The notes under the pieces are model-generated. The model saw only the letters and a list, made by a program, of their open reading frames with translations, was not told the DNA's origin and ran no database searches. Source: Escherichia coli (GTDB taxonomy: Bacteria > Pseudomonadota > Gammaproteobacteria > Enterobacterales > Enterobacteriaceae). Taken from it: a DNA stretch of 64,000 nucleotides. The stretch lies in assembly GCF_024502345.1 (NCBI RefSeq), contig NZ_JALDNN010000001.1. One strand, 5' to 3'. Shown piece after piece: positions 15,079 to 40,228 of this stretch. Position 1 is the stretch's first letter. Each line of letters begins with the position of its first letter. The translations under genes and the position numbers were made by a program.

Positions 15079-15082
15079 CAAA

Positions 15083-19717: not shown

Positions 19718-19726
19718 ATCAATAAT

Positions 19727-20202: not shown

Positions 20203-21300
<1,098 letters not shown>

Positions 21301-21399
21301 TATTACTGTCGCCTGTAAATAACCGGCACAGTGCGAACACCATGCCGGGAGATTATGGCTGACAAAACGGGAACGACAGGATCCCGCTGTTGTCGGGGG

Positions 21400-23082
21400 T
21401 CAGAAGGTTTCCCAGTTCTCGCTGGCGTGTTGTTCCGTTTCACGAACGGACTTTACCGCTTTAACCTTACTCTGCGGGCTGGTGTTGCTGATTGTCGGTA
21501 CTATGGTATTTTTTCGTTCAGCATCGCGTTTTTTATTATCACGGAGACGAAATACGCTCACCTTCTCCTGCAGAATCCGTGACTGATTCTGCAACGAAGC
21601 GGCAGTGGCTGCAGACTGTTCCACCAGAGCTGCATTTTGTTGGGTGGTGCTGTCTATCTGGCCCATGGCGCTGTTAATCTGGGCAATACCATCTCCCTGC
21701 TCACGACTGGCCTTGGCTATTTCGTCAATCAGCCCTTCCATGCTCTGGACGTTACTGATGATATCCTCCATTCCCCTGTCTGCTTTTTCAACCAGGGTAC
21801 GGCCGGATGCAATGCGGGAAACGGAGTCATCAATGAGCTCTTTTATTTCCCGCGCGGCAGAAGCACTGCGCTGAGCCAGATTACGAACCTCTCCGGCCAC
21901 AACCGCAAATCCACGGCCGGACTCGCCGGCGCGTGCGGCTTCCACGGCAGCATTAAGCGCGAGAATGTTGGTCTGGAAGGCAATCCCGTCGATGACCTGG
22001 ATGATGGCTGTCATTTCAGACGAGGTGTCGTAAATCTCCTGCATCCGGGAAGACACCTCACTCATGACCACTCCATTCTGTTTCACAATGGCCGTTGTTT
22101 CTGTCACAAACTGGTAAACCTGTGCTGTATTGCCGGCAGTATTGTTTATGGTGGCCGTCAGTTGTTCCAGAGTGGCCGCCGTCTGTTCCACACCGGCAGC
22201 CTGCTCTTCGGTGCGGGCTGACAGGTCTGTATTACCACTGCTGATTTCTGCTGCAGTCAGCGCAATATTGTCCGCTCCCTGACGTACTTCCCGGACGGTG
22301 TTACTCAGACTCCCGCACATATCACGCAGTGCCTGCATCAGTTGCCCCAGCTGGTCCTGTGAGTCCACTTTAATCTCCACACACAGGTTACCTTCCGCCA
22401 CTTCCCGGGCAATCCGGACGGCTGAAATCAACGGACTGGTAATGCTTCTGGTGATCAGCCATGCCAGCACACCTCCCAGAAGAAGCGCCATACACCCAGT
22501 GATGATCAGTGTCAGTATGGCTGCCGTACCATTATCAGCGATAACTTCACCCGCTTTATCTATGCTTGTTTTTTCGTATTCCACCAGTGCCTGCAGACTG
22601 GCCATGTAGTCATTTATGATCGGTAATTGCTGTGACTCAATGAAGTGGTTCAGGGCTTCACGGTCCCCCTGCTCACTGATCTGAAGAGCTTTTACCAGGG
22701 TATCTGCATACACCTGACGCTTTTCACCAATGGTTTTCAGCAGCTTAATACCCTGCTCTGAAGTAAGCTCCCTGTTAAATTTATCCTGCAGTATATCCAC
22801 GCGAGCACGGGTTTTCTCTATCCGCTGCTGTGCATATGTCCTGATATCCGGGTCCCCCGACGTCAGCAGAACCAGTCCAAGCGCACCGTTTGATTCAATA
22901 CCGGTCTGCCATTCATTCGCCATACGCTCCTGCAGAAGATAATTATTCATCACGCGATCGGTGGAAGTGAGCATAGAGTTCAGGTACCCCACTCCGGTCA
23001 CTGTCATGATCATGATAAGAACCAGAATTAGGCTGAAGCTGCCAGCCAGCCTGATACCCACACTAAAGTCTTTGATTTTCAT
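21400..23082 (-). CDS. Methyl-accepting chemotaxis protein, four-helix-bundle sensor, HAMP, Tar/Tsr-like signalling domain, C-terminal NWETF
   Basis: 560 aa; signalling domain VIDGIAFQTNILALNAAVEAARAGESGRGFAVVAGEVRNLA, methylation-region motifs, NWETF pentapeptide. Confidence 0.85.
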   Translation of the reverse strand: MKIKDFSVGIRLAGSFSLILVLIMIMTVTGVGYLNSMLTSTDRVMNNYLLQERMANEWQTGIESNGALGLVLLTSGDPDIRTYAQQRIEKTRARVDILQDKFNRELTSEQGIKLLKTIGEKRQVYADTLVKALQISEQGDREALNHFIESQQLPIINDYMASLQALVEYEKTSIDKAGEVIADNGTAAILTLIITGCMALLLGGVLAWLITRSITSPLISAVRIAREVAEGNLCVEIKVDSQDQLGQLMQALRDMCGSLSNTVREVRQGADNIALTAAEISSGNTDLSARTEEQAAGVEQTAATLEQLTATINNTAGNTAQVYQFVTETTAIVKQNGVVMSEVSSRMQEIYDTSSEMTAIIQVIDGIAFQTNILALNAAVEAARAGESGRGFAVVAGEVRNLAQRSASAAREIKELIDDSVSRIASGRTLVEKADRGMEDIISNVQSMEGLIDEIAKASREQGDGIAQINSAMGQIDSTTQQNAALVEQSAATAASLQNQSRILQEKVSVFRLRDNKKRDAERKNTIVPTISNTSPQSKVKAVKSVRETEQHASENWETF

Positions 23083-23380
23083 TTTATTACCCGTGAATGA
23101 AGCTGGTTATTTCGGACCCCGGTGTCCCTGACAAATAACTGGTGCCTCCAGACTTATTTATGAGGAATCATATTTTGATTAACGAGATCTGTTATCGGTA
23201 TCAGTGTGCCTGAATGGAGTATGTCAGACACGACCACTTAATACCCCGAAGCGTCCTGCCAAAAAAGACCAGACGGTGAGGGCTGGTCTGAAATCTGACA
23301 ATGTCTATGGGGTCTACCGTTGCGTAGAGGGCTGTCACAACGTTAATAAGATTATCGGCAACAGTCCGGTAAACTTTAAC

Positions 23381-24028
23381 GGCACTGTTGCAAATAGTCG
23401 GTGGTGATAAACTTATCATCCCCTTTTGCTGATGGAGCTGCACATGAACCCATTCAAAGGCCGGCATTTTCAGCGTGACATCATTCTGTGGGCCGTACGC
23501 TGGTACTGCAAATACGGCATCAGTTACCGTGAGCTGCAGGAGATGCTGGCTGAACGCGGAGTGAATGTCGATCACTCCACGATTTACCGCTGGGTTCAGC
23601 GTTATGCGCCTGAAATGGAAAAACGGCTGCGCTGGTACTGGCGTAACCCTTCCGATCTTTGCCCGTGGCACATGGATGAAACCTACGTGAAGGTCAATGG
23701 CCGCTGGGCGTATCTGTACCGGGCCGTCGACAGCCGGGGCCGCACTGTCGATTTTTATCTCTCCTCCCGTCGTAACAGCAAAGCTGCATACCGGTTTCTG
23801 GGTAAAATCCTCAACAACGTGAAGAAGTGGCAGATCCCGCGATTCATCAACACGGATAAAGCGCCCGCCTATGGTCGCGCGCTTGCTCTGCTCAAACGCG
23901 AAGGCCGGTGCCCGTCTGACGTTGAACACCGACAGATTAAGTACCGGAACAACGTGATTGAATGCGATCATGGCAAACTGAAACGGATAATCGGCGCCAC
24001 GCTGGGATTTAAATCCATGAAGACGGCT
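23381..24028 (+). mobile_element. IS26, 3'-truncated (left IR plus ~648 bp)
   Basis: Left IR GGCACTGTTGCAAA at 23381-23394; transposase matches IS26 Tnp to ...ATLGFKSMKTA, then sequence diverges; right IR absent. Confidence 0.85.
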
Positions 24029-24031
24029 TAA
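23444..24031 (+). pseudogene. tnpA: IS26 transposase, C-terminally truncated (195 of ~234 aa)
   Basis: MNPFKGRHFQRDIILWAVRWYCKYGISYRELQEMLAERGVNVDHSTIYRWVQRYAPEMEKRL...; stop created at junction. Confidence 0.8.
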
Positions 24032-24531
24032 CGGACATAACCTACATCAGGACCCACGAAGGCTGGCTGTATCTTGCCGTGGTGGTTGATCTGTTCTCAC
24101 GCAAAATTATCGGCTGGTCCATGCAATCCCGGATGACAAAGGACATTGTCCTGAACGCACTGCTGATGGCCGTATGGCGGCGTAATCCCCAAAAACAGGT
24201 GCTGGTTCATTCGGATCAGGGCAGTCAGTACACAAGCCATGAGTGGCAGTCGTTCCTGAAATCACACGGCCTGGAGGGCAGCATGAGCCGTCGCGGTAAT
24301 TGCCATGATAATGTGGTTGCAGAAAGCTTTTTCCAGTTGTTGAAACGCGAACGGATAAAGAAAAAGATCTACGGAACGCGGGAAGAAGCCCGCAGCGATA
24401 TTTTTGATTACATCGAAATGTTTTATAACAGTAAGCGTCGGCATGGTTCCAGCGATCAGATGTCACCGACAGAATATGAAAACCAGTATTATCAACGGCT
24501 CGGAAGTGTCTAGATTATCTGTGGCGATTCA
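24029..24531 (+). mobile_element. IS3-family orfB 3' fragment (~160 C-terminal codons) abutting truncated IS26
   Basis: Translation LTDITYIRTHEGWLYLAVVVDLFSRKIIGWSM...HSDQGSQYTS...SMSRRGNCHDNVVAESFF (DDE integrase core). Confidence 0.65.
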
Positions 24532-24546
24532 TATCTTGGAATATAA

Positions 24547-25017
24547 ATGTTAAAAAAATTAATAACTTTTTCTGCCATCCTGTGTACGGGACAAGCATGG
24601 GCTGCATGTGTGGATGGTGCAGCTGGCCCAAACGGCGTAGATAGTGCCACCGAAGGTAGTACCTGCGATAACAGCGGTACGTCATATATAGGGAATAATA
24701 CCGCTTATGCGAGCGGGTCAGGTTCTGTTCTTAATTTCTTACCTGGAACTGTAATCAGTAGTAATGGTGTTGCTGCCGTTTATACGCTTGCCGTGGGAGG
24801 AGTCAATAGTGGCGGTTCGATCCCTGGAGCTGGAGCAACGGTTCATGCAAAAGGAGATTTAACAGTTAATGGGAATGCTCTGGGCAGTACTCGGAGTATT
24901 TTTATCTTTTCTGGTACAGATGCAGGGGGAAAACGTAACTCACTTCAGATAGATGGAAACCTGACTGCAACGAGGACTGGCGGTCTTTATGGGGCTGTTA
25001 TAGGTGATAATGCCTGA
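24547..25017 (+). pseudogene. Autotransporter/adhesin-like secreted protein, N-terminal fragment (signal peptide plus Gly/Ser/Thr-rich beta-helix-like region)
   Basis: Signal peptide MLKKLITFSAILCTGQAWA followed by G/S/T/N-rich repeats; ORF ends where the antisense integrase fragment begins. Confidence 0.4.
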
Positions 25018-25548
25018 CTGGGCAGCATAGCGCATGATTGCAGTGATACGCTGCTGAAGGCGCGCTGCAATCTCATAAATCTCTTTGGCTTCGGCTGCCT
25101 TTACTGGAACAAGTAAATCGGGAGTTCTGAGGGTGGTAATGTCACGTGAACCGATAAAGGGAAACACATGAGTTTCTAGGCTTTTCAGTATCTTCTCACT
25201 ATGTGAGGCTGACCATTTTTTGTTGCTCTTATGCCACTGCCTTGCGATGCCTTCAAATGTCTGAGCTGTTTCGGGTACCGACTTTTTGATTCGTTTCTGT
25301 TCGCACGGGTCAGTTCCTTCAGCTATCTGCTTTCTCGCCGCATCGCGTTTTTCCCTTGCTTCTGATAACGAGACTTCAGGATAGACACCCAGGGCGAGCG
25401 TTTTCTCTTTGCCCAGAAACCGGTAGCGGAGTCGCCAGTAGCGCGAGCCGTTAGGGTGAACGAGCAAAAACATGTTGCCGCTGTCGGCAAGTTTATAAGG
25501 TTTTTCATCCGGTTTAGCTGCACGGATTTTAGCGTCAGTGAGCGCCAT
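25018..25548 (-). pseudogene. P4-type tyrosine integrase, N-terminal ~175 codons only (catalytic domain missing)
   Basis: MALTDAKIRAAKPDEKPYKLADSGNMFLLVHPNGSRYWRLRYRFLGKEKTLALGVYPEVSLSEAREKRDAARK matches P4/CP4 integrase N-termini; ~195 bp downstream of the tRNA-Phe terminator. Confidence 0.75.
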
Positions 25549-25704
25549 TGGCGGTATCTCCTGATAGTAAAAGGGGCATAAATTTTATCGAATCAGACTA
25601 TACCCTCAGTTGTACCCTCGCAAGGGGCTTGATGCGGGTAGAAGTTGATTGAGCTGGGTGGAGTTAATGGATTGAAGAGGTGTTGATTTCTGCGGGATTA
25701 GAAT

Positions 25705-25732
25705 GCAAAAACGGACCTCCGTGGAGGTCCGT
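25705..25732 (-). terminator. Rho-independent terminator downstream of tRNA-Phe
   Basis: Perfect hairpin acggacctcc-gt-ggaggtccgt followed on the minus strand by TTTTT. Confidence 0.6.
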
Positions 25733-25743
25733 TGATATGAATT

Positions 25744-25792
25744 TGGTGCCCGGACTCGGAATCGAACCAAGGACACGGGGATTTTCAATCCC
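25744..25792 (-). tRNA. tRNA-Phe (pheV/pheU type), 3'-terminal 49 nt only; island attachment-site remnant
   Basis: TGGTGCCCGGACTCGGAATCGAACCAAGGACACGGGGATTTTCAATCCC is the reverse complement of the tRNA-Phe 3' end including CCA; homology stops inside the anticodon arm. Confidence 0.8.
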
Positions 25793-26069
25793 TTTAAAAG
25801 AGCCCAAACGATCCATCAGCACTAACAGTTTTTTACTGGTTTACCTTGAGAAAAATGTTTAAGTTTGGTTCTTCATGACTTAAGTATTGCTTAAATACGG
25901 CGTTTCGAAGCTACCAGAATCCTACCATTATGAGCCTATACCCATAGAAGAGAAATTATCTCCCGTTCTCGCGATTCAATGACTAAAAATCAGACGGTGC
26001 AGGCTTTTAGATACTGATATTATATCTTTTGGGTAAAGTATTAATCTCTGTTGAGATAGGCTCTTAGCC

Positions 26070-26414
26070 CTAAAATAGCCGAGCAGCAAACGCCAAAACA
26101 ACAATACTAACATTACCATTAACTGTCGCGATGGTTCTGAGTCGATCGTCTTTAAGTGTTTTACCATCAAATGTTGCGATGGTGCGGAGTCGATCGTCTT
26201 TCAGGGTCTTGCCATCAAAGGTAGCGATGGTGCGGAGTCGGTCGTCTTTCAGGGTTTTACCGTCAAAAGTTGAGATGGTTCTGAGCCGGTCGTCTTTCAG
26301 GGTTTTACCGTCAAACGTTGCGATGGTCCTGAGCCGGTCGTCTTTCAGGGTTTTACCGTCAAAGGTAGCGATGGTACGGAGTCGATCGTCTTTTATAGTT
26401 ACGCTCATAAGCAT
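26070..26414 (-). CDS. Small protein made almost entirely of ~5.5 tandem 16-aa repeats (DGKTLKDDRLRTIATF)
   Basis: ATG at 26414 preceded by AGGAG at 7-nt spacing; the overlapping plus-strand ORF lacks an SD. Confidence 0.5.
   Translation of the reverse strand: MLMSVTIKDDRLRTIATFDGKTLKDDRLRTIATFDGKTLKDDRLRTISTFDGKTLKDDRLRTIATFDGKTLKDDRLRTIATFDGKTLKDDRLRTIATVNGNVSIVVLAFAARLF
26127..26395. repeat. 48-bp direct tandem repeat array, ~5.5 copies, slightly degenerate
   Basis: Unit cgatggtNNNgagNcgNtcgtctttcagggttttaccNtcaaaNgtNg repeated head-to-tail. Confidence 0.85.
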
Positions 26415-26629
26415 TCTCCTGTGATACGTCCGTTCAGCACTTTACCATCCAAAATCAAGCACTGGTTTCTGTGAGTTCTGGACGCTAATTGTCTGAATCA
26501 GCGATTAAAACTCATCCAGTTAGCATTAACATTAACCAGCGCCTCATCGATCATAACAGGTCTGATGCAGGTTAAAAGATACAATCTTACCCATAAATTG
26601 CGGTAGCGCATTGTTCTTTTATCTGACAT

Positions 26630-29600
26630 CTAGAGGTGTCCTCCAACCCCTTTAAATTTTTCGATAAATGCCCCAATTTTCTGGAATACAGTCTGCTTTT
26701 TCGTTTTGTACTGAGGATTCAGCGGACTGAGCTTTGGTAGCGTCTCATTTAGCTCCGTCCCATTTTCGGTGGCATACTCCCGTTTTAGTGATGTGCGGAT
26801 ATAGCGCCTTGCAGCCTCTTCATTGAGGTTTTCTTCCTTAATCAACGCCTCTGCTTCCCGTTGCTGTTCACGCTGAGCATAGGTAAAGAATGCATCAATG
26901 ATACTGGCCTTGTCCGGCATGTCATCAAGGTTAGTTTGCTGAATAAAGTCAACAATCAGACCTTCTTTGGCACGGTTGCCCAGACTTGAGCGGATTAAGC
27001 GTCTGACCTCTTCAGTCAGGGCTTCTTTACCTTTTTTCTGACGATTGTGGTCGAAAATCAGACCAAGGATGTAATCCAGGTTAATTTCCTGCGACTTCAG
27101 CAGGTCAATTTCAAACACCACGTCATCCCAGTCTGTGGTTGATTTATCCCTGTCGTTTGATGCTTTTTCGCGTCGCTGCCAGTCCCGGATATCATTGTAT
27201 GCTGAGCGATAGTCCTGAACTTTACGTTCTGCCGGGAGACGAATGGTTTGTAATTCAGCAAATTTTTCATCATCCACATAGTGCTCTGCTTTAAAGGTTT
27301 CTACCGCTTCCGGGTCACTAATATCAACCTTCTGCAGGGCTTTCAGCGTGGCAAATTCATCATAGTTTTGCAGGATGTTTTCTGCCCGCAGATATTCACC
27401 AAACAGTTTGACGAAGGCTTTTTTCTCTTTTTCACTGTCGATACTGGCAGGGTCAGGGAAGCGCTGCTCCAGCTCAGAGACAACAGCCATAAAACCTCGT
27501 TTAGCCTCACCGGTTGCCGCATCGGTAAAGCCCTGCATGTACTCTTCGTAGCTTTTTTCCAGCACCACATTCTTGGTGTTTTTGTCGCCGAAAAGTGTGA
27601 TGGCATCAATGGTCGGACGCTCCAGGTCCCTGAAAGTCACGATATTGCCGAAGGTTTTGGTTGCATCATAGATACGGTTGGTGCGTGAGAATGCCTGCAT
27701 CAGACCGTGATAACGCAGGTTTTTGTCAACGAACAGAGTATTGAGCGTCGGAGCATCAAAGCCAGTCAAGAACATTCCCACCACGATGAGAAGGTCAATA
27801 TCCTGATTTTTCACTCGTTGAGCTAAATCGCGGTAGTAGTTCTGGAAACCGTTACTGTCGGTGCTGAAATTGGTTTTAAAGTGGTTGTTATAGTCATCAA
27901 TGGCTGAATCCAGGAATTCCTTTGCGCTGCTGTTCATTGCACTGGTATCAAAACTTTCGTCGGTAATATCACCAATAGCGCTTTGCTCTTCATTAGCAGC
28001 AAAAGAGAAGATGGTTGCCACACGAAGACGTTTATAGCTGCCAGATTTCTTCTCAGCTTCTTCCTGTAGCATTTTAAATGTCGTGTAATAAGCTTTTGCC
28101 GCGTCCACGCTGCTCACTGCTAACATGGCATTGAAGCCTTTTGCTCCCGGGAAGGTACGATGCGTTTTCTGGCGGAAGTTATTGAGAATGTATTGCGTTA
28201 TTTCCTGGATACGCAGTGGGTGCAGAAAGGCCTGGTGGTTTTCAGCCGCGCTGAGTTTTTTCTCATCAGTTTCCGTTTCAAGAGACTTAAACTGTGGGCG
28301 GACATCGTTATAGTCCACCTTAAACTTCAGCACTTTTTCATCACGAATCGCATCAGTAATGACGTAAGAATGTAATTCACGCCCGAAGACGCTGGCGGTG
28401 GTTTCTGCCCCCAGTGCGTTTTCCGGGAAAATAGGTGTACCGGTAAAACCAAACTGATAAAAGCTTCTGAATTTCTTTTTGAGGTTTTTCTGGGCCTCAC
28501 CAAACTGGCTGCGGTGACACTCATCAAAGATAAACACAACCTGCTGCTGATAGACGGGCAGGTCAGCTTCGGCTTTCATCAGGTTATTGAGTTTCTGAAT
28601 GGTTGTGACGATAATTTTGTTATCGTCCTTATCCAGGTTTCTTCTGAGGCCAGCTGTATTATCCGAACCATTCACACTGTCCGGAGAGAAGCGCTGATAC
28701 TCCTTCATGGTCTGGTAATCGAGGTCTTTCCTGTCGACCACGAAGAAGACTTTATCAATAAAGTCCAGCTCGGTTGCCAGACGTGCGGCCTTAAAACTGG
28801 TCAACGTTTTACCGCTACCTGTGGTATGCCAGATAAACCCGCCGCTTTCGGGTTTTGACCAGTTCTTCGCTTTAAATGAGCTGTTAATTTTCCAGAGGAT
28901 TCGCTCAGTGGCAGCAATCTGATAGGGGCGCATGACGAGCAGCGTCTGGCTGCTGTCAAACACGCTGTAATTAAACAGAACATTCAGCAGAGTATGCTTC
29001 TGGAAGAAAGTGGCGGTAAAGTCCTTCAGGTCCTTAATCAGAGTGTTATCCGACTTTGCCCAGTTCATGGTGAAATCAAAGCTATTTTTATCCCGTTTAG
29101 TGGTACTGGCAAAGTACCGGGTATCAGTCCCGTTGGAAATCACGAAGAGTTGCAGGTATTTAAACAGGGAGTTATCGCTGTTAAAGCTTTCCTTGCTGTA
29201 ACGGTGTATCTGGTTAAAGGCTTCACGAATCGCCACACCGCGTTTTTTGAGTTCGATTTGCACCAGTGGAAGGCCGTTGACCAGAATGGTGACGTCATAA
29301 CGGTTAGCGTGTGAGCCAGTCTGCTCAAACTGCTGAATGACCTGCACCTTATTGCGCAGCAGGTTCTTTTTATCTATCAGATAGATGTTTTCCAGACGAC
29401 CATCATCAAACGTAAAATCACAGATATAGTCGATATGGATTTTACGGGTTTTGTCCAGGCTGCTGTCACTGGGACTGTCCAGATACTGCTCTGCGAAGCG
29501 CCGCCATTCACTTTCGTTAAACACCACACCATTAAGACGCTGAAGCTGGTCTCGCACATTCGCCAGCATCGCAGCCGGTGACTTAACGGAGATAAACTCA

Positions 29601-29746
29601 TACCCCTGATTAAGAAGGTCTTGAATCAGCTCCCGCTCAAGGTCCGATTCGCTCTGGTAACTCTCACCAGTTTCCTGAGCTTTAGAGTACTTATCAAGGA
29701 CGATAAAGTTATTGGATTCAGCAATAGTATGTGTCTGTTGTGTCAT
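26630..29746 (-). CDS. hsdR: Type I restriction enzyme R subunit (HsdR)
   Basis: 1038 aa; DEAD/DEAH-type helicase motifs (TGSGKT, DECH) in an HsdR-like architecture. Confidence 0.9.
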
Positions 29747-29861
29747 GGTGCATCCTGTGCGTCATCTGGCAAAGTCCGGAAGGGTATCAGAAACATCATC
29801 CGGCACTCGTAAAGCCTGATACCGGTAGGTGAAAGCAGACACTGCCGGTATCAGTGGCCTG

Positions 29862-31087
<1,226 letters not shown>

Positions 31088-31091
<4 letters not shown>

Positions 31092-32644
31092 TTCTGCACC
31101 TCGCAGCCTTCAATTTCAGCCACAATCGCATCAATATCTTTGCGCAACTGGTCGATTTTGCTGACCGTGGTTTTCAGCTCTGCATTCAACTCAGCGATAT
31201 CGATAATTTCGCGAGTATCTTTCGCTTCCACATAGCTGCTCACCGACAGGTTATAGTCATTCGCGACAACAGTCTCAAACGCAACAGATTTCGCCAGATG
31301 AGCAACATCTTCCTTGCTGGCAAATACCTGCATAATTTGTTCGATATGGGCATCGGTCAGGATATTGTTGTTGGTCTCTTTTTTGAATAGTTCACTGGCG
31401 TCAATAAACTGAACTTTGGTATCGGTTTTATGTTTAGACAACACCAGAATATTGACGGCAATAGTGGTGCCAAAGAACAGGTTCGGTGCCAGTGAAATCA
31501 CGGTTTCGACATAGTTATTGTCAACCAGGTACTGTCGGATTTTCTGCTCTGCACCGCCACGGTAAAAAATACCGGGGAAGCAAACTATTGCTGCACGCCC
31601 TTTAGCAGACAGGTAGTTCAGCGCATGTAGGACAAATGCAAAGTCCGCTTTTGATTTCGGGGCCAGTACACCAGCTGGAGCAAAGCGCTCATCGTTAATC
31701 AGGGTCGGGTCGTCACTGCCAATCCACTTAACCGAGTACGGCGGGTTAGAGACAATCGCATCGAACGGTTTTTCATCGCCAAAGTGAGGCTCAGTCAGGG
31801 TATTCCCCAGTCTGATATCAAATTTGTCGTAGTTGATGTTGTGCAGGAACATGTTCATACGCGCCAGGTTAAAGGTTGTATGATTTATCTCCTGACCATA
31901 AAAACCTTCTTCAATGATATGGTTATCAAAGTGCTTCTTCGCCTGAAGCAGCAGTGAACCAGAGCCAGCGGCAGGGTCATAGATTTTGTTGACGTGAGTC
32001 TGACCGTGCATCGCAAGCTGAGCAATCAGCTTGGAGACGTGCTGAGGTGTGAAGAACTCCCCTCCAGACTTACCGGCATTTGCCGCATAGTTAGAAATCA
32101 GGAACTCGTAGGCATCACCAAACAGGTCAATCTGGTGCTCGTTAAAATTCCCCAGGTTAAGCCCTTCAACGCCTTTCAGAACGGCGGCAAGACGGCTGTT
32201 TTTGTCTTTAACTGTGTTACCCAGTCGATTGCTGGTCGTATCGAAATCGGCGAACAGGCCTTTGATGTCGGCCTCGGACGGATAGCCGTAGGCAGAGCTT
32301 TCTATAGCGACGAAGATACTATTTAAATCAGCATTCAGCCTGTCGTTGGTGTTCGCTTTAGCGGCAACGTTGCAGAACAGCTGGCTCGGGTAGATGAAAT
32401 AGCCTTTAGTCCTGATGGCATCGTCTTTGATGTCATCGGTAATGATGCTGTCATCAAGTGCTGCATAATGTATGCTCTCATCCCCTGCTTCCATGTAGCT
32501 GGAAAAATTCTCACTGATGAAGCGGTAGAAAAGTGCACCGAGTACATACTGTTTAAAATCCCATCCATCTACTGAGCCCCTGACATCATTGGCAATGGCC
32601 CAGATTTGACGGTGTAGCTCTGCACGCTGTTGAAGGCTTGTCAT
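31088..32644 (-). CDS. hsdM: Type I R-M N6-adenine DNA methyltransferase subunit (HsdM)
   Basis: 518 aa with NPPY catalytic motif ([10 protein letters not shown]); stop overlaps hsdS start. Confidence 0.9.
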
Positions 32645-32847
32645 TTTGTATCCTGTTGTATGATTCTTAAGTACTGTTATTGGCCCGATTTTATCGCAAT
32701 TTCATATGGATGACAGGCTTTGTATGTCATGCGTTGCACTGAGAGTTCGTTTGCCCGGTTGTGTAGCCAACACTCTTTCAGTCAGGCCAGTAGAAACGTT
32801 GCGCTGACGATAAATACTGAAGCCCCAATACCATCGGGGCTGAACGT

Positions 32848-34725
32848 TCAGTCGGTGAGAATTTCTTCATCCGTATCCATTGTGGATGGTGATGAATCTA
32901 TTTTTGTTGTAAGAAATACCCGATTCAGTAGTCTTTGCTTCAGGGCGTTTCTTCGCTCATTGTAGAATTCCGGGAAGTGACTGAACTCAATATTTTCATC
33001 TGAAACTAACAGCATTGATGGCGAATAGTTGTTTGATGGCTGAGATAGCCATTGTTTCAGGGAAGTATCCTGTTTACTTATATTCTGAGAGTGATTCAGT
33101 AAATGAAGATTCGGTATGGTGTCCCAGTATTCCGGATTTTCATAAAAGCTGAGCTTCTCAGGTGAATTCGCAATATAATCTAGTTTTTCAAGATATTTCT
33201 TTGAAAAATGATTTCTTGGGTGAAGGTGATCAATATGAAATACCTCGGTTGGATTCATTTCAGGGAACAGAAGATGCAATAGTGCGCGGCAACGACCTTC
33301 GCCATATCTGATATTGAGAAGGCTTTCGATGTATTCGTCGTCAAATCTGAGGTCTTTATTCGAGCCTTTATATCTGTCAATAATCTTTTCAAGAGGAAAG
33401 TGAATATCTGAAAGACTATTTTTCATTACCTCTCTGATACTCGTGAGTAGCGCATCTGCCTGGCTTCCAAAGATCCCTTTCAGAAGTACCATGTAAAACC
33501 ACTGGCTAATTACTGAGCGTTCATTGTGGTTTTTATTCAGGAGGTTAATCGTTGTATATAATGGATGTCCACTGGTTTGCTTTTTGTAAAGCCAGTAGAC
33601 CACAGGAATGACTGCATTTTTAGATATCAAAGACTGTGGATTGATGCCGAATCGCCTGATAAGAATAAAGGTCTCCTTGATACAGGATTTTATTTCAGAC
33701 CATTGTTGTTGTATCTTACCGACCTCCTCTGAAGTGAAGTTTTTTACTTTGAACCGGACGTCAGAGTCAATAAGCATCAGGCTGGTTTTTAAGAACCAGT
33801 CTCTTTCAATATAAAAACCCATTTCATTATTCTGATAAATGTTTTTTGTCAGTTCATCCAGTTCTCTTCTGAAATCCCCCTGCCAGTGCGCTACCGCTAT
33901 TGACATCAGTAAGTCTGAAAACTCAAGTTTTGTCCCCCCGCTGTTCGTGCGGATGAAAACATCCAGCACATGATCAATGTCCTGACTGCTCTCATTGAAG
34001 TAGTGGATAAGATTCTCAGTTCTTATCTTGGTATAAAGTTTAAGCAGAGTTTTTCTGGAAAATTCACTGGAAATGAGATCTCTTTTTTCAAGTTCTGGTA
34101 CGACAACGTTAAATAAAATATCATCAGGCGAATCATGTTGCTCGTATTTGAATATTTCGTGCAGGCAGAACCAGTGATGTTTGTTGTCTGTAAGTGAATC
34201 AGCGTATTGCTTGTCGGTCAGGAACCTGAAGTTATACTTCATCATGAGTTCGTCGTCTGACTTAAGTGGCGCGGTTAAATCGACGTAAAGCTTTCTGGGC
34301 GGCAGGATGCGATCATCCTGTGCCGAAGGCCACCACATCCGGGGCTGTTTATACGCATACGTTCCACACAATCCAATATATAATGATGTGAGACGCTGCT
34401 GACCATCAATCACCGCTTTGAAATCATGAAATCCAGCATTTGTTGCTACGCAGGGGTTTTCTTCATTAAATCGCTGACAGTATTCTTTCAGGAATTCATA
34501 GAATTTGTAATCATTTTTAATACTGGCACTACGGATATCCCACATCATGAAAGAGTTTATCGGGTAGTCTCGCATGATGGAATCAAACAGCAAACATATC
34601 TGACTGCTGCTCCAGACGAACTTCCTCTGAATTGCAGGCAGAAGATAGTGGCGTAAATTAATTGAATCTATCGCTTGTTTTATCGTTATTGCTTTTTCAT
34701 ACTGGCCAGCCATCATAAACCTCAT
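32848..34725 (-). CDS. DUF262 (ParB/GmrS-like) plus DUF1524 (His-Me finger, GmrD-like) two-domain protein; candidate Type IV (modification-dependent) restriction or defense nuclease
   Basis: 625 aa; N-terminal ...IQRKFVW...VIDGQQRLTSLYIGL; C-terminal HIDHLHPRNHFSKK; AT-rich coding sequence. Confidence 0.75.
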   Translation of the reverse strand: MRFMMAGQYEKAITIKQAIDSINLRHYLLPAIQRKFVWSSSQICLLFDSIMRDYPINSFMMWDIRSASIKNDYKFYEFLKEYCQRFNEENPCVATNAGFHDFKAVIDGQQRLTSLYIGLCGTYAYKQPRMWWPSAQDDRILPPRKLYVDLTAPLKSDDELMMKYNFRFLTDKQYADSLTDNKHHWFCLHEIFKYEQHDSPDDILFNVVVPELEKRDLISSEFSRKTLLKLYTKIRTENLIHYFNESSQDIDHVLDVFIRTNSGGTKLEFSDLLMSIAVAHWQGDFRRELDELTKNIYQNNEMGFYIERDWFLKTSLMLIDSDVRFKVKNFTSEEVGKIQQQWSEIKSCIKETFILIRRFGINPQSLISKNAVIPVVYWLYKKQTSGHPLYTTINLLNKNHNERSVISQWFYMVLLKGIFGSQADALLTSIREVMKNSLSDIHFPLEKIIDRYKGSNKDLRFDDEYIESLLNIRYGEGRCRALLHLLFPEMNPTEVFHIDHLHPRNHFSKKYLEKLDYIANSPEKLSFYENPEYWDTIPNLHLLNHSQNISKQDTSLKQWLSQPSNNYSPSMLLVSDENIEFSHFPEFYNERRNALKQRLLNRVFLTTKIDSSPSTMDTDEEILTD

Positions 34726-34786
34726 ATGTTATATTAGCTGGCCTATTTTAATTTATTGCGTGTCGGTAGTACAGTCTTTGCACAAA

Positions 34787-35116
34787 CTAATTTATGCAAT
34801 GGAAAAGCTGACGGCTCGGTTTGTGTTTTTCATTCGGGTAGACTCGCATTGCGGATGCACAAAGTGATGAAACCTGTCTTGCTATATTTTTACCGAAGTT
34901 AACAAGAAGGCCGTGCTTTATTTTTTCACCCTCTGCCCTGATGCTGATGATAAAGCTGAACTGATATACGATTACCTCAATGAGGTCATTGCCAAATGTT
35001 ATAATGGCGGCGTTGTTTATTTCATGTTCATAATCCCTCAGGTCAGTGTTAAGTCTTGCTGTTGCATCTACAAGTGCGTATTCTTTATCGATAATCATAA
35101 CTTTCTCACTTATCAT
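34787..35116 (-). CDS. Small hypothetical protein between the WYL regulator and the DUF262/DUF1524 gene
   Basis: ORF of 109 codons co-oriented with flanking genes; start uncertain (MISEKV or MIIDKEY); no family recognised. Confidence 0.3.
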   Translation of the reverse strand: MISEKVMIIDKEYALVDATARLNTDLRDYEHEINNAAIITFGNDLIEVIVYQFSFIISIRAEGEKIKHGLLVNFGKNIARQVSSLCASAMRVYPNEKHKPSRQLFHCIN

Positions 35117-35156
35117 GTTAATGTGATTTAATCATCACTAATAATATGTTGTGATT

Positions 35157-35870
35157 TTAATTACGATTATTCGTCTGTTTACTCCCGTAATGCATTATCT
35201 TATGAATAATGTTCATGTGGGGTAAGGCTTCCATAAAGTCAGACTGTTCAATCAGCGAAATGAGTGTGTTATCGATCTCAAACGTTGTATCCGGTAATAC
35301 CTCAACCAGCCTGATTCGGGACAGGGAAATAACGAACACGCCCGATGACGTACATCCGGCAAGAAACCACTCCGCATGGCTGCAAAGCAGACGGTAGGGA
35401 TGAACGGTATGGCTGACGTTTTCGTCGGTTCTGATACGCACCTGGGTCTGGTTAAGTATGGCGAGCGTCAGTCTGCTGAAATCACCGAAAAGGGTGGGTT
35501 TCTGGCGCGGCTCCGGTAGCATAATCCTGTATGGCGAGGGACGTTCCCCGTCAAGCATCAGGCTCAGTAGTTTGGCATCCATCGCGGGTAACAGACGGTC
35601 AAGATGCAGCAACCTCGCCAGTATCTTCATATCCCGTTCCGTGCGGCGACGAAAGTAATGTGAGGCAAGCTGATACACGCCGTTGCTCTGTTCAATATCA
35701 AGGTAGGTCAGACGGACGTTGAAATCCCGTCGCAGCGTTCGCGTCGTCACTCCAAATTCTTCTGCCAGCGTCCCGATATGCAGCTTTTCACCCTGAAACA
35801 AACGGCTCAGGATGATGGAAAGGCGGGTTGCCAGTCTGTCATGTTCGTTTTCTTGTGTTATCAGCGTCAT
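35157..35870 (-). CDS. HTH plus WYL-domain transcriptional regulator (YfjR / BrxR-like)
   Basis: 237 aa; N-terminal HTH LHIGTLAEEFGVTTRTLRRDFN, C-terminal ligand-binding-type region. Confidence 0.7.
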   Translation of the reverse strand: MTLITQENEHDRLATRLSIILSRLFQGEKLHIGTLAEEFGVTTRTLRRDFNVRLTYLDIEQSNGVYQLASHYFRRRTERDMKILARLLHLDRLLPAMDAKLLSLMLDGERPSPYRIMLPEPRQKPTLFGDFSRLTLAILNQTQVRIRTDENVSHTVHPYRLLCSHAEWFLAGCTSSGVFVISLSRIRLVEVLPDTTFEIDNTLISLIEQSDFMEALPHMNIIHKIMHYGSKQTNNRN

Positions 35871-35871
35871 A

Positions 35872-35930
35872 CATCATTTCCGAATTTAGCCGGGAAATGA
35901 TGCCAGCAGTAGCGGACAGGATTTGTCCGC
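35872..35930. promoter_or_regulatory. Two inverted repeats immediately upstream of the WYL regulator start (candidate operators)
   Basis: catcatttcc-N11-ggaaatgatg at 35872-35902 and gcggaca-ggatt-tgtccgc at 35911-35929. Confidence 0.4.
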
Positions 35931-35972
35931 CCTCTGAAGTTTTTTAAAGTCTGAATACCTTAAATGTAAGTG

Positions 35973-36266
35973 CTAAACGTCAGTATTCTCAGGTGAATAA
36001 AGATGCTTCTGGCGCATGTAGGCAATAAAAATGCAGGATGGTAGCGTCACCCGGTATGCGGGACCGGCTAAATCAATCAGCAGCCAGAGAGAACTGAGCA
36101 CCCAGCCCACGGGACCGGCAAAAGCGCCCATGGTACGCGTCAGCATGGCATTTCCTGCAACGGTCAGCCCTCTGCCTAACAGGGCTTTCGCCACACCATT
36201 TGTGACAACAAGTGCCATCTGATAGGCCGCAAACCCGGATGTTTTAATCCCCGCCTGGATTGCCAT
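35973..36266 (-). CDS. Hypothetical membrane-associated protein; possibly the 3' half of a frameshifted gene
   Basis: 97-aa ORF starting 2 nt after the stop of the upstream ORF, different frame. Confidence 0.3.
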   Translation of the reverse strand: MAIQAGIKTSGFAAYQMALVVTNGVAKALLGRGLTVAGNAMLTRTMGAFAGPVGWVLSSLWLLIDLAGPAYRVTLPSCIFIAYMRQKHLYSPENTDV

Positions 36267-36268
36267 GG

Positions 36269-36589
36269 TCAGCAGCTCCGGCGTGGGATTGCTGTATCGC
36301 AGACGATACCGAGCAGGAGATACCAGCCATCATCAAGTGCGGTGACGTATTCCGGGTTAGCCAGTGCCACTGCCAGCAGCGGGTCTTCGGGGAGTGTGTC
36401 ATCGTGGTTGAGATGCCAGAGCAGGGTTCCCGTTTCGTTCCAGAAGGCGGTAAACAGGTCGATATCATCGACAGGGCCAAGGATTTCATTGCTGAGGGCC
36501 ACCAGTGCGGAGGCGGGCAGGTTGAGAAGGGGAAGACTGGTGGGAGTCGTGAGTTTAAACATGATTATCTCCATAAGTAATTGATTCAT
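36269..36589 (-). CDS. Hypothetical protein; possibly the 5' half of a frameshifted gene
   Basis: 106-aa ORF immediately upstream of 35973-36266 on the same strand. Confidence 0.3.
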   Translation of the reverse strand: MNQLLMEIIMFKLTTPTSLPLLNLPASALVALSNEILGPVDDIDLFTAFWNETGTLLWHLNHDDTLPEDPLLAVALANPEYVTALDDGWYLLLGIVCDTAIPRRSC

Positions 36590-37081
36590 ATTGATAATAT
36601 GTTTTCAAATGACTTTTAGTTACATTTTTTTTACGTTGTTTGCTTATTTTGGATTATGTCCTTAAATTTAGTAGTGGGCTGGCGTTAAATCCCGTTTTTT
36701 TTCCGATTTGCAGCATTTTGTAAGCAAATTAGCATGAGCTGTTTTAACTGAAAATGAGAGAAGGCTTGCGCACAATTGCTATTGATTTTCTTACTTATTT
36801 TCTCAATCACAAAACGCCTTAAATAGTTCAAAAAACAATCAACACCCCATAATCGATATTATTTATGGGGAGAAACGACGTTTAAGCCTGAAAGTGGGGG
36901 AGTGGCACTTTCAGGAGATTAAGGAGGCAAACAGGCCTCTTTAACGCGTGTTTTTCTCACCAAAATGTCAGAGTCGGTGATTTGCACTTCAGTATTTCTG
37001 CCAATACTATTCGCTCCATGTGCTGGCCAGCATCTAACTCAATACCCTTAATCTGTATTAATTGAGCGAGATGTATGCATT

Positions 37082-38404
37082 ATGAAACCCGATAGTTCTT
37101 TAAACCAAATAACGCAGACAATGAAACGGAATGATGTTGATTCTGTGGATAGTCGCTTTTTTGAGTCAGCGCAAAACATGAAAACCAGCGTTGACGTTGA
37201 AGATTGCTGCGTTGAAGTGATGGTTCGACATCACAGCCCAAAGAATCAAAGAGAGGCATTCACTAAAGCTTTTTTTGATGAGTGTAAAATCCGTGCAGTA
37301 CAAACTGGCCGGACTATCGAAGCCAGCGATACAAAATGTACCGGGCTTAAGGCTATATTCCACTCATCCGGACGCATTAAGTTTATTGTCCGCAAAAGTA
37401 TTCGCGGAAAGAATGTTTACGTTGCAGTAGGAAGTTACCCTGAATTTTCCATTAATAACGCAAGGGAACATGCCTTTAAAATAATTCAGGAGCTTAAGGC
37501 TTCCGTTGAGACTTATGGTGAGCGTTTTCTTACGCACAGCAAAATAACGTTTAATGAACTTGTGGAACAGTATGTGAAATGCGTACTTAACACGGGCGTT
37601 AAGCGTTCAGCTAACACCGACCTTTCTAAGATCCGTAAATACCTGCGCCCTCTTCTCGGTGACAAAAAGCTGGCAGGTATGACGGAGGCAGATGTTCTGA
37701 GCTATCTACACGATCTCGATCTTAAGCCTGCCACACGCAACCGCCACCTGGCGCTCATTAAAGCGGTCTTTACCTGGGCTATACGCATGGGATACACCAG
37801 CCGCTCTCCGGCGCTTTATATCAAAGCGCTGCCTGAAGTGACGTCAGATCGCCGCGCCATGGATGACTCCCAGCTTCAGCGCTGGATGGAAGTCTGTGAG
37901 TGCTGGCGTAATGGTAAACCCGATCATGAAGCCCTTGCTCTGCTCATGTTCCTTGCCCTGACGGGGCTGCGTCTGGGGGAAACCCGTCACCTTCGTCTTG
38001 AAGATGTGGACTGGAGCCGCAAGGTTATCACCCTTCGCCATACCAAAAACGGCAAACTCCGCCGTGTACCGGTATGTGATAAGGCTTTCGTTCTTCTGAC
38101 AGAACAGCGTCAGCATCTGGGTGATGAAGGCTGGGTATTTCCGGGCAAGGGGACCGACAATCCGGTTTCTGAGCCGCGTCGCCTGCAAAAACGGCTTTGT
38201 GAGGCTGCGGGTATTCCACCGTTCACCATCCATGAGATGCGCCATACCTTTGCGACAAAACTCATTGAGAGCGGGGCCGACATTCACACCGTCAAAGACT
38301 TACTGGGCCACAGCACTATCAAAGTGACGGAGCTTTACTTGCACGCTTCCCCGGCGCGTTACCACGAAGCTGTTAACCGGGCGATGAATGTTTTTCCGGC
38401 CTAA
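37082..38404 (+). CDS. Tyrosine site-specific recombinase / integrase (not P4-type)
   Basis: 440 aa; C-terminal catalytic signature ...FTIHEMRHTFATKLIESGADIHTVKDLLGHSTIKVTELYLH. Confidence 0.8.
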   Translation: MKPDSSLNQITQTMKRNDVDSVDSRFFESAQNMKTSVDVEDCCVEVMVRHHSPKNQREAFTKAFFDECKIRAVQTGRTIEASDTKCTGLKAIFHSSGRIKFIVRKSIRGKNVYVAVGSYPEFSINNAREHAFKIIQELKASVETYGERFLTHSKITFNELVEQYVKCVLNTGVKRSANTDLSKIRKYLRPLLGDKKLAGMTEADVLSYLHDLDLKPATRNRHLALIKAVFTWAIRMGYTSRSPALYIKALPEVTSDRRAMDDSQLQRWMEVCECWRNGKPDHEALALLMFLALTGLRLGETRHLRLEDVDWSRKVITLRHTKNGKLRRVPVCDKAFVLLTEQRQHLGDEGWVFPGKGTDNPVSEPRRLQKRLCEAAGIPPFTIHEMRHTFATKLIESGADIHTVKDLLGHSTIKVTELYLHASPARYHEAVNRAMNVFPA

Positions 38405-38476
38405 ACAGAATTCCCCCTCAGGCAAGTGAGTTCTGCGCTTTACTGCCTGTGGTTCACATTCAAAAGGAACCTGTAA

Positions 38477-39172
38477 ATGAATAATAAATCAACACCATCC
38501 CCCTTGACTACAACGACCCCCGCTCGTTTTGCCTGCAGGAAATTAAATGCATTTCTGGCTCGTCGTGCTCTTCATATGAAGGTGGTAAGAAAAAACCTGA
38601 ACAAGGCTGCTGCAATCGACATCGATCTCGATGACATTTCTAAGTGCGGATGCCGTGATGGTCTGCCTGAAGGCTTTGTCAATACTGCAAAAGGGCTTTT
38701 CTATTATGAAGGAAAAAAATGGTACCAGTTAAGCTCGACCCCCATTCTCCCTGTCTACAGGCATTATTCTGATTGTAAAACGCGCAATATGGGCGTCGAG
38801 TTGATGACTATCAACCATGCTGGAGAGTTCGCCTGTGCTGATGTCTCATTAAGTGATGCAATGGTAAAACCTGATCACGTCATGGCTTCTCTGGCGGGCA
38901 AAGGTTTTGGTATCTCCCTGACGATAAAGTCTAAAGAGCTTCTGGTGCAATTCTTACAGGTGTGTATGAAGAAATCGCTGGAATTGCCTACTTATCTTGT
39001 CGCAGATTCGATGGGTTTTGTGCCTGGCAACAAAGCATTTCTTCACGGCAGTATACCTATCGCGCAGCACCTTTTGGAATTTGACTATTTGATTCCGGCT
39101 TCCCGTGTTCCACGAGGGCTTGTCGAGTCGGGAACGCTGGATGACTGGAAAACGATGGTACCTGTGAAATGA
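38477..39172 (+). CDS. Hypothetical protein downstream of the integrase
   Basis: 231-aa ORF with AAGGA-type SD; 3' end overlaps convergent ORF 39085-39468. Confidence 0.4.
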   Translation: MNNKSTPSPLTTTTPARFACRKLNAFLARRALHMKVVRKNLNKAAAIDIDLDDISKCGCRDGLPEGFVNTAKGLFYYEGKKWYQLSSTPILPVYRHYSDCKTRNMGVELMTINHAGEFACADVSLSDAMVKPDHVMASLAGKGFGISLTIKSKELLVQFLQVCMKKSLELPTYLVADSMGFVPGNKAFLHGSIPIAQHLLEFDYLIPASRVPRGLVESGTLDDWKTMVPVK

Positions 39173-39468
39173 ATCCATTCTGATTCACCGAAGTCACTGG
39201 TCTGGTGTGACAGCGAGTACAGCCAGGCGTTATCCTTTTCCGTGATATGTGCGGTACTGCAGCGTATGCCGGCAAGGGTTGCAAACGGTGGTAGTGTGCA
39301 GGTTGACTGTTGGTCGGATTCCTCCACCACGCGGAGTGAATAACCGTTTTCAGCGACCTTGTTAATCAGTTCAGTGAGATTAACACCATCGACATCAACG
39401 ACAATTCGCCCCATGTTCAGTGCCTGCACATTAATGCTGTCGGCTTCCAACGTCAGGGCCAGTTTCAT
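39085..39468 (-). CDS. Hypothetical small protein downstream of the WYL regulator
   Basis: ATG at 39468 preceded by GGAGG; C-terminal extent uncertain because of overlap with 38477-39172. Confidence 0.4.
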   Translation of the reverse strand: MKLALTLEADSINVQALNMGRIVVDVDGVNLTELINKVAENGYSLRVVEESDQQSTCTLPPFATLAGIRCSTAHITEKDNAWLYSLSHQTSDFGESEWIHFTGTIVFQSSSVPDSTSPRGTREAGIK

Positions 39469-39577
39469 TGTTTCGCCTCCGGATGCTTCCCCTGGGTAAT
39501 GTTATTTACCGTTCTGTAGTTATCGCGGGTCATCAGGCCGGTTGCCCTGCGAGCCCGGAGAATATCAATACTGTTTA

Positions 39578-40228
39578 TTAACTGAGAGCGGGTAAGGACT
39601 GAATAAATCCCGGGTCTTCAACAAGACGACACAGACTGTCGTTACGCCGGAAAGTCTCCTGCAGGGGCTGAACCAGATGGATTTCATCCAGGGAGAATAC
39701 GGCGATATGTCCGTCGTGCTCTGCCACCAGATACCAGGCCTGCTGGTGGATAAGTAACCGGCAGGGAGCCAGCCGCTCACAGCGCTGCCCCTCGGCAATC
39801 AGAGTCACCCGCCTGCGCCCGGTAATGGCCTGAATCAGTCGCCAGAAAGACAATGCGCCTGATGGCGAAGGAGCCGGACTGGCGGGTGCGATTACGCAGG
39901 GAGACTCATCGCACATCAGCAGTGCGTTTACCAGACGACGGTCAAAGCCAGGGAAAAGACCGGCCATCCCGCTGCGGTGGGCAAAGATAAGCACGTCGGG
40001 CACCATCTGCGTCTCACTGCCCGCAGTGCGTAAGCGGTAATATCCGGACTGATACTCCAGGTCCAGATACATCAGCCGCTCACGAAAATCACGCCGCAGC
40101 GTGCGCACCGACACACCAAACTCAGCGGCAAGCTTACGCACACTCAGCGTTTCCCCTGCCACCAGACGGCTGATTATCAGTGACAGCCTGACAGCCAGCC
40201 GGTCATGGCGGCGTTCTGCCTGTGTCAT
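39578..40228 (-). CDS. HTH plus WYL-domain transcriptional regulator (YfjR-like), paralog of 35157-35870
   Basis: 216 aa; [28 protein letters not shown]; same architecture as the first WYL regulator. Confidence 0.7.

Follow-up and report, generated by a model that had tools for sequence, protein, structure and literature searches.

BrxU is a single-protein type IV restriction enzyme that cuts modified-cytosine DNA and complements methylation-based BREX (PMC8565348). The same enzyme is known as HEC-05, and GmrSD-like genes are reported to lie frequently within Hma and type I restriction-modification (R-M) loci (bioRxiv 10.1101/2024.01.29.577857); their embedding in type I R-M is also described in the Vibrio TgvAB paper. 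Both the pairing of GmrSD with type I R-M and the occurrence of WYL regulators with type I or type IV restriction are already published. WYL and R-M genes have, in addition, been found to be the commonest defence neighbours of jukA (bioRxiv 10.1101/2022.09.17.508391). Here, we describe a 64,000-nt stretch of Escherichia coli DNA (contig NZ_JALDNN010000001.1, assembly GCF_024502345.1), termed the window, in which an array of seven genes encodes a helix-turn-helix (HTH) WYL regulator, a small orphan protein, a BrxU-like GmrSD enzyme, the three subunits of a type IC R-M system and a repeat-containing 5-fold beta-flower protein. All coordinates are those of the window, L-numbers designate the loci examined and P-numbers the proteins of relatives, and the neighbourhood comparison covered loci encoding homologues of the orphan or the WYL protein. 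The array occupies the cargo end of an island that integrates at tRNA-Phe (pheV) and is decayed here; this is an ordinary defence island with known system types. On the evidence below we consider it likely that the WYL and orphan genes form part of the backbone of this island, and that a variable cargo slot beside the attachment repeat (attR) is filled with known modules.

All seven open reading frames (ORFs) were recovered on the minus strand, exactly where an earlier note on this DNA had placed them: the beta-flower gene (26070-26414, 114 aa), hsdR (26630-29746, 1038 aa), hsdS (29862-31091, 409 aa), hsdM (31088-32644, 518 aa), the GmrSD gene (32848-34725, 625 aa), the orphan (34787-35116, 109 aa) and the WYL gene (35157-35870, 237 aa). 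The earlier note had also read these genes as a defence array at a tRNA-Phe attachment site, and the domain matches and the tRNA 3' remnant agree with such an array at one end of an island. It had further proposed that the seven genes could constitute one WYL-controlled defence system, in which the orphan and beta-flower proteins may be dedicated components beside the GmrSD and type I enzymes. The shared orientation is in keeping with such a system, as are the short gaps between the WYL gene and the orphan (40 bp) and between the orphan and the GmrSD gene (61 bp), neither of which contains a terminator. The gaps 5' of hsdM, hsdR and the beta-flower gene measure 203, 115 and 215 bp, respectively, and count against one unit. 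NCBIfam gave no match for the beta-flower, GmrSD, orphan or WYL proteins, and an Rfam scan of positions 25000-39500 revealed no known RNA family.

The tRNA-Phe 3' remnant is real and lies just outside the coordinates of the earlier note. It constitutes the distal attachment repeat (attR) of the island. On the minus strand (25744-25792), 49 nt match the 3' end of pheV without a mismatch, as they do the tRNA-Phe 3' ends of Hafnia and E. coli NT1F10, and the native tRNA terminator (25710-25733) comes next. The exact 23-mer of the remnant occurs once in the window, with 0 occurrences expected by chance, and ARAGORN found an intact tRNA nowhere in the window. The same repeat ends the island in Hafnia (L004), Edwardsiella (L002) and Pseudocitrobacter (L007). 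In Hafnia the whole 17.3-kb element is present, from an intact tRNA-Phe at 112-187 of L004 to the 3' repeat at 17431, and the order in E. coli NT1F10 is yqgA-pheV-int-DUF927-int-backbone-JukA-WYL-orphan. The backbone begins with tRNA-Phe, an integrase, a DUF927 gene and a second integrase, continues with genes for a 117-aa protein, a 143-aa protein, DUF2787 and LRAT proteins, a DeoR fragment and a 127-aa protein, and closes with DUF3944 (JukA-like), HTH-WYL and the orphan; variable genes and then the tRNA-Phe 3' repeat complete the element. This organization resembles the P2/P4 hotspots, hotspot 5 of the SXT integrative and conjugative element and the genes described as embedded in defence systems: a mobile backbone is conserved, and at a set position within it one defence system is exchanged for another, unrelated one. 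The tRNA-Phe island family itself, with two tyrosine recombinases flanking DUF927 and a JukA-like/WYL/orphan module beside the slot, was not met in the literature searched, the searches not having been aimed at pheV/tRNA-Phe islands.

The genes that follow the orphan vary between islands. E. coli G3/10, Pseudocitrobacter and two Enterobacter species carry the same GmrSD, type IC and beta-flower set, with 95-99% amino acid identity except in HsdS. The cargo in Edwardsiella comprises a type IC system and a 388-aa gene, with neither GmrSD nor beta-flower gene; in Silvania it is Kiwa and in Hafnia a PDC-M26A-like pair, both on the opposite strand; in Pantoea it is a type II R-M system with PDC-S08, in Morganella a GHKL-like pair and in L033 a DUF6708 gene. 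Altogether, about eight distinct cargo types were seen over some 20 loci. Since the same backbone precedes different cargo, the WYL and orphan genes are backbone genes rather than dedicated partners of the restriction enzymes, and the single WYL-regulated system proposed earlier does not fit these unrelated neighbours, often encoded on the opposite strand, nor a type IC system that follows WYL and orphan in the absence of GmrSD and beta-flower genes. Moreover, HsdM and HsdR of Edwardsiella are 92-96% identical to those of the window, whereas its WYL and orphan proteins are 58% identical; cargo and backbone have therefore recombined and have separate histories. Co-location, which the earlier note had suggested checking by neighbourhood comparison, was found in part: the full seven-gene set recurs in several genera, but WYL and orphan also stand beside other cargo.

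Among 5426 complete E. coli genomes, the WYL/orphan pair was present in 106 (∼2%) and the BrxU-like gene in 114, and 27 held at least 80% of the whole 11.5-kb stretch. The identical arrangement in these genomes, in Pseudocitrobacter and in Enterobacter would favour a single system; however, identities of 95-99% reflect the recent spread of one element, not independent retention. In E. coli G3/10 every gene of the array is already annotated by the Prokaryotic Genome Annotation Pipeline (PGAP).

The backbone in the window is incomplete, its outer integrase and the intact tRNA being missing. Beyond the WYL gene lies a JukA-like (DUF3944/YaaW) 3' remnant (35973-36266, minus strand), which matches PADLOC JukA (1e-28) at model positions 152-240 only; the intact protein, with DUF3944 and a Cbp3-like domain, is absent from the window, where just the last 97 codons persist. 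Adjacent to it is a homologue of the 117-aa first backbone gene (36269-36589, minus strand), which in intact islands is separated from the JukA-like gene by ∼3 kb according to tblastn. These are followed on the plus strand by a backbone tyrosine recombinase (37082-38404; NCBIfam Xer/integrase, ∼1e-29), whose region shares 95-97% DNA identity with the integrase region of L007, L009 and L001, and by the 5' fragment of the DUF927 (primase-like) gene (38477-39172), within which island homology ends at ∼39164. Using blastn, window positions 31035-36296 aligned with 9575-14836 of the Pseudocitrobacter island, 36295-36602 with 6508-6817 and 37259-39164 with 3871-5776. Comparison with intact islands places a deletion junction at 36295/36296, from which ∼2.76 kb has gone, taking with it five genes (143-aa, DUF2787, LRAT, DeoR fragment and 127-aa) and the greater part of the JukA-like gene. 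A frameshifted JukA-like gene, of which the ORF at 36269-36589 would be the N-terminal half, was also considered; this was ruled out by tblastn and blastn, which identified the ORF as the 117-aa backbone gene joined to the remnant by the deletion.

The WYL protein was examined against BrxR and CapW, the regulators with which the earlier note had classed it. Matches to HTH_DeoR (6e-6) and WYL (4.6e-4) in Pfam and to PADLOC WYL (2.4e-15) define an HTH-WYL protein of YafY-like type. Foldseek, applied to the structural model, returned BrxR (7QFZ, 2e-7), CapW (including its complex with single-stranded DNA, ssDNA), PafBC and DriD as the top matches, with E values from 2e-7 to 1e-5. The protein shares with BrxR and CapW an N-terminal HTH followed by WYL, a position upstream of defence genes and a conserved palindrome in front of its own gene. 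However, it has 237 aa against ∼290-300 and lacks WCX, stopping ∼45 residues after the WYL domain and leaving a gap of ∼55 residues relative to the 304-aa P0099 (WCX, PF25583). BLASTP against pEFER BrxR gave E 0.048, that is, no detectable similarity, and a PDB sequence search recovered neither BrxR nor CapW, which emerged from fold comparison alone. The earlier WYL assignment holds; with WCX missing and no sequence similarity to pEFER BrxR, the protein is a member of the broad HTH-WYL (YafY-like) class, outside the strict BrxR family.

Upstream of the WYL gene, a palindrome GGACA-N5-TGTCC (35914-35928), in its fuller form G(C/T)GGACA-N5-TGTCC(G/A)C, is centred 51 bp from the start codon and is a likely WYL operator. 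Its distance to the WYL gene is conserved in 10 loci, and a change in the flanks in Edwardsiella and Hafnia affects both sides, so that the symmetry is kept. In all islands with an intact JukA-like gene (9/9), the palindrome is centred at two places, 56-58 bp before the JukA-like gene and 51-54 bp before the WYL gene. The copy before the JukA-like gene sits directly downstream of an intrinsic terminator and therefore in the promoter region. No palindrome was found near the cargo genes in any locus examined, which is a further difference from BrxR and CapW, the putative operator copies of this family marking the JukA-like and WYL genes and not the restriction genes, and which again argues against control of the seven genes as one system. 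The array in the window contains a single copy, two other matches in the window being at chance level. Because the palindrome is found upstream of the WYL and JukA-like genes only, the WYL regulon would comprise the JukA-like gene and the operon of the WYL gene itself; judged from these sequence patterns, the WYL protein most likely binds the palindrome and controls the JukA-like gene together with its own operon, orphan included. In the distant locus L018 a related motif, GGACAGGATGAGTCC, is present twice in the intergenic region between an orphan homologue and a divergently transcribed regulator with WYL and WCX. The palindrome was also considered as a terminator, a role rejected on the absence of a T-run and on the position of the JukA-like copy after a real terminator. 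Separately, a second and weaker inverted repeat (35876-35900, minus strand) covers the ribosome-binding region just upstream of the WYL start; it reads TTCCCG-N8-CGGGAA in most loci, is imperfect in the window and keeps its symmetry in Edwardsiella despite changes.

The first cargo gene (32848-34725) encodes a GmrSD enzyme of BrxU/HEC-05 type. Pfam GmrSD_N (DUF262) matches residues 16-276 (2e-33) and PADLOC assigns HEC-05 (1.8e-230). The 625-aa protein aligns over residues 9-600 with residues 2-575 of the BrxU chain in PDB 7P9K (E 1.7e-99), and full-length similarity to the crystallised pEFER BrxU (E 2e-110) amounts to 35% identity over 600 aa. The motifs QR, LFDS, DGQQR and FxxxN are retained, as is a nuclease DHLHP motif (DHIYP in BrxU); the DUF262 motifs occur in the translation and in the BrxU alignment as IQRKF, VIDGQQRLT and FIRTN, and the nuclease region aligns FHIDHLHPRN with FHVDHIYPKG of BrxU and NLHLLNHSQNISK with NLQLLEGTINNQK of BrxU. 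Of the two domains claimed earlier, DUF262 was readily detected; DUF1524 was not found by Pfam, but the corresponding region aligns with the BrxU nuclease, so that assignment of the nuclease domain relies on BrxU homology. By its sequence, the protein is a full-length BrxU homologue of the GmrSD family, predicted to be a type IV enzyme. As with BrxU, the gene resides on a mobile element, beside a methylation-based system and near a WYL regulator, the differences being the identity of only 35%, a type IC R-M neighbour in place of a surrounding BREX locus and the DUF1524 domain that Pfam does not detect. BrxU/HEC-05 homologues are reported to act as single genes (bioRxiv 10.1101/2024.01.29.577857), which speaks against a requirement for the other six. 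Variants of this gene were noted elsewhere. In several E. coli genomes just the first ∼240 nt of the DUF262 gene is left after the orphan; in NT1F10 (L028 11469-11939; one strain inspected) the remaining cargo has been exchanged for IS1/IS3 elements. Plasmid pQnrS1_005237 (L029) carries a BrxU-like gene and a WYL fragment with IS1 between them, adjacent to a type II Zorya system.

The type I R-M assignment was upheld, with hsdR, hsdM and hsdS all of full length. HsdR matches TIGR00348 (733 bits) and, over residues 1-1037, EcoR124 HsdR (PDB 2W00, 2129 bits); HsdM matches TIGR00497 along its full length (644 bits); and PADLOC Specificity_I covers HsdS residues 1-409 (3.5e-122). From the coordinates the gene order is M-S-R, with a 4-bp overlap between hsdM and hsdS. 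HsdS aligns along its full length with EcoR124II HsdS (PDB 7BST, 7e-64, 219 bits) but resembles it only in the conserved regions, and three TAEL repeats are visible in the translation of its central conserved region (30480-30520). The system thus shares with EcoR124I/II a near-identical full-length HsdR match and the order hsdM-hsdS-hsdR, and with EcoR124II the three TAEL repeats, but it is chromosomal, on an island, where those are plasmid-borne, and its target-recognition domains differ. The TAEL copy number reportedly sets the length of the recognition-site spacer in EcoR124I versus EcoR124II, a result attributed to Price et al. in 1989. HsdS is only 36-39% identical to the HsdS proteins of islands that are otherwise 95-99% identical. 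As the target-recognition domains diverge (219 bits only), a different DNA sequence is presumably recognised, and the genes are assigned to an archetypal type IC system with a predicted specificity of its own. For EcoR124-type systems HsdR, HsdM and HsdS suffice, a further argument against additional components in a seven-gene unit. The Edwardsiella island, which has no GmrSD gene, has in common with the window the 54 bp immediately preceding hsdM, and this fits an hsdM promoter of its own.

The last cargo gene (26070-26414) matches Pfam Bflower_2 (PF21785, 1.7e-10) and contains 5.9 copies of a 48-nt (16-aa) unit, KDDRLRTIATFDGKTL, as detected by Tandem Repeats Finder. The units include FDGK, and the protein ends in a hydrophobic C-terminal tail, VSIVVLAFAARLF. 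Pairwise comparison of the five full units gave 56 synonymous against 4 nonsynonymous codon differences, and this synonymous excess shows a real gene on the minus strand; the orthologue in E. coli G3/10 is annotated by PGAP as '5-fold beta-flower protein'. The beta-flower fold was described in 2023, has no known function and in many members encloses a hydrophobic C-terminal helix (PMC10584680). Members of PF21785 (Durairaj et al., 2023) have five beta-hairpin repeats with a [DNEQ]xxG turn motif and, in many cases, a hydrophobic helix at the C terminus. The window protein resembles them in its hairpin repeats with a D-G turn, in loops that contain Phe and basic residues, and in the helix; it is probably membrane-associated. 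No report of a beta-flower gene beside restriction cargo was found in the literature searched. Stop codons in all three frames upstream of the gene exclude a hidden N-terminal domain. Longer 'homologues' (P0132, P0134) were set aside, their N-terminal extensions looking like read-in from transposase fragments. On small mobilisable E. coli Mob/Rop plasmids (L022-L027), shorter beta-flower-like proteins (64-88 aa) show 48-53% identity to half of the query; their genes are flanked by a NikA-like gene on one side and by a pair for a reverse transcriptase and a cold-shock-domain protein on the other. Here, too, a beta-flower gene stands next to a likely defence module. In the window, part of the 215 bp separating hsdR from the beta-flower gene is taken up by a 43-codon ORF (26498-26629, minus strand).

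The orphan (34787-35116) is the last gene of the backbone. Its probable start is M7 at 35098, giving 103 aa, and it contains the motif KIKHGLLVNFGK. The earlier view that the two small genes are real was upheld, the repeat gene by its Bflower_2 match and synonymous-biased codon changes and the orphan as a conserved family of 77 clusters, all from Enterobacterales, reaching down to 52% identity. Their proposed role as components of a restriction unit was not, the orphan being a backbone gene and the beta-flower gene accompanying this cargo only. The 109-aa ORF has no match in Pfam, NCBIfam, PADLOC or the PDB, and a profile search found only 42 representatives among 1.84 billion proteins. An AlphaFold2 (AF2) model (predicted local distance difference test, pLDDT, 81; predicted template modelling score, pTM, 0.73) has an alpha/beta ferredoxin-like fold. 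Identification as a HUH (Y1) transposase of the IS200/IS605 TnpA or RAYT kind was rejected, as the HUH motif and the catalytic Tyr are absent; the one conserved His is lost in remote homologues, and for these two reasons the orphan is not called a nuclease. A relationship to pEFER BrxT was likewise discarded (E 0.71).

Remote homologues of the orphan occur in other contexts. A distant island, L020, encodes a JukA-like protein (34% identity), a WYL-like protein (24%) and an orphan homologue recognised by remote-profile similarity, along with an integrase, a D5-type primase and a BsuBI/PstI R-M system. In L032 the homologue is flanked by a DUF927 gene and an integrase, with which it apparently forms an operon, and in Pantoea L006 the orphan has neither WYL nor JukA-like neighbours; the contigs of L017, L019 and L031 were too short to inform. 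The orphan is kept in integrative islands that are only distantly related, mostly next to a WYL regulator; a link between JukA and WYL is already known.

Taken as backbone and cargo of a decayed tRNA-Phe island, the genes suggest the following arrangement. By BrxU homology, the DUF262 NTPase of the first module would sense modified-cytosine DNA, which its His-Me nuclease would cut; the type IC system would methylate host DNA and cut unmethylated DNA with its own specificity; together, these two modules could cover unmodified and modified phage genomes. The beta-flower protein would form a third module, probably at the membrane. A WYL dimer may bind the palindromes in the promoter regions of the JukA-like and WYL genes, of which only the WYL copy survives in the window, and a ligand response, analogous to the way in which CapW and DriD sense ssDNA, would control the JukA-like/WYL/orphan regulon. 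With no terminator-like structure in the 61-bp gap, read-through from the orphan into the BrxU-like gene is plausible, and the two might be co-transcribed; separate promoters are probable for hsdMS, hsdR and the beta-flower gene. The scope of the earlier proposal is corrected accordingly: both restriction systems are closely related to the well-studied EcoR124 and BrxU and require no new components.

Several observations weigh against this account. A sigma-70 promoter scan yielded nothing convincing upstream of the WYL gene; promoter-like sites were overall fewer than in shuffled sequence, and the scan could not define transcription units. The AF2 model of the WYL protein is of moderate confidence (pLDDT 66 overall, 72-89 in the HTH and WYL domains), and WCX, which aids dimerisation of BrxR and CapW, is missing from the sequence of the protein on which the predicted operator binding depends. 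Pfam DUF1524 gave no match in the 625-aa protein even at E≤10. The beta-flower gene was seen only with this cargo and could be an accessory of it. Finally, the full seven-gene order is kept in several genera and may indicate some coupling, at least of the WYL to the BrxU-like gene.

Among the alternatives, the JukA-like, WYL and orphan proteins might together constitute a Juk-type defence, with JukA as sensor, a variable partner and the orphan as effector or adaptor; truncation of JukA would have left this system dead in the window, its WYL and orphan genes being leftovers unrelated to the cargo. The full-length 249-aa backbone protein of E. coli G3/10 is a clear PADLOC JukA (3.5e-72), the trio is kept at deep divergence in L020, the same palindrome precedes the JukA-like and WYL genes, and JukA has been reported with variable effectors and often WYL neighbours (bioRxiv 10.1101/2022.09.17.508391). 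However, no PADLOC JukB match was obtained among the window genes or the G3/10 backbone genes, the orphan also exists away from JukA-like and WYL genes (L006 and L032), and E. coli JukA homologues are reported to be sufficient alone (bioRxiv 10.1101/2022.09.17.508391). On balance, we regard a Juk-type system as unlikely.

The WYL and orphan proteins could otherwise serve the life cycle of the island, through excision, replication or transfer induced by damage or phage, with the orphan as a small nucleic-acid-binding accessory and any defence effect incidental. All contexts that were informative are integrative elements encoding an integrase together with a DUF927 or D5 primase, the L032 homologue even lying in its apparent operon between the primase-like gene and the integrase, and DriD, CapW and PafBC sense ssDNA or DNA damage (PDB descriptions). 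The absence of the HUH motif and of catalytic residues from the orphan, with its conserved His lost in remote homologues, does not favour such a role, nor does the position of the pair in the main family, at the cargo end and far from the integrases; we hold this explanation, too, to be improbable.

An extension of the backbone-and-slot reading, which at present seems quite doubtful, would make the JukA-like protein, the WCX-less WYL protein and the orphan a three-gene sensing and regulatory module at the mouth of the slot, governed by one shared operator, so that co-oriented cargo, here the BrxU-like enzyme, becomes inducible by whatever signal WYL senses; the orphan would act as a new type of co-factor, with a ferredoxin fold like that of TnpA and perhaps able to bind ssDNA. 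If the WYL protein does couple a JukA-like sensor to downstream cargo, the islands would provide a simple, natural and regulated plug-in slot for defence genes. That all seven genes operate as one dedicated WYL-controlled system is, given the variable cargo, the self-sufficient enzymes and the lack of palindrome copies before the cargo, very unlikely.

Two further observations concern the surroundings of the decayed tRNA-Phe island. A truncated P4-type integrase gene (24940-25548, minus strand, 202 aa) starts 196 bp beyond the tRNA-Phe remnant, and an integrase with the same N-terminal sequence also follows the remnant in Hafnia (L004 17649-18905); the occurrence of similar integrases beyond the remnant in both indicates that the pheV site carries tandem islands. 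On the other side, in an observation that took in 39160-50000 and 10000-25800, the DNA to the right of the truncated island (appCBA, a gene for a GTPase-family protein and others) is 100% identical to a locus that other E. coli genomes carry megabases from pheV/glc. The array of G3/10 lies at 4.44 Mb and this flanking DNA at 0.84 Mb, whereas strain C 236-04A shows the reverse arrangement; these positions point to a large inversion or other rearrangement, broken within the DUF927 gene of the island.

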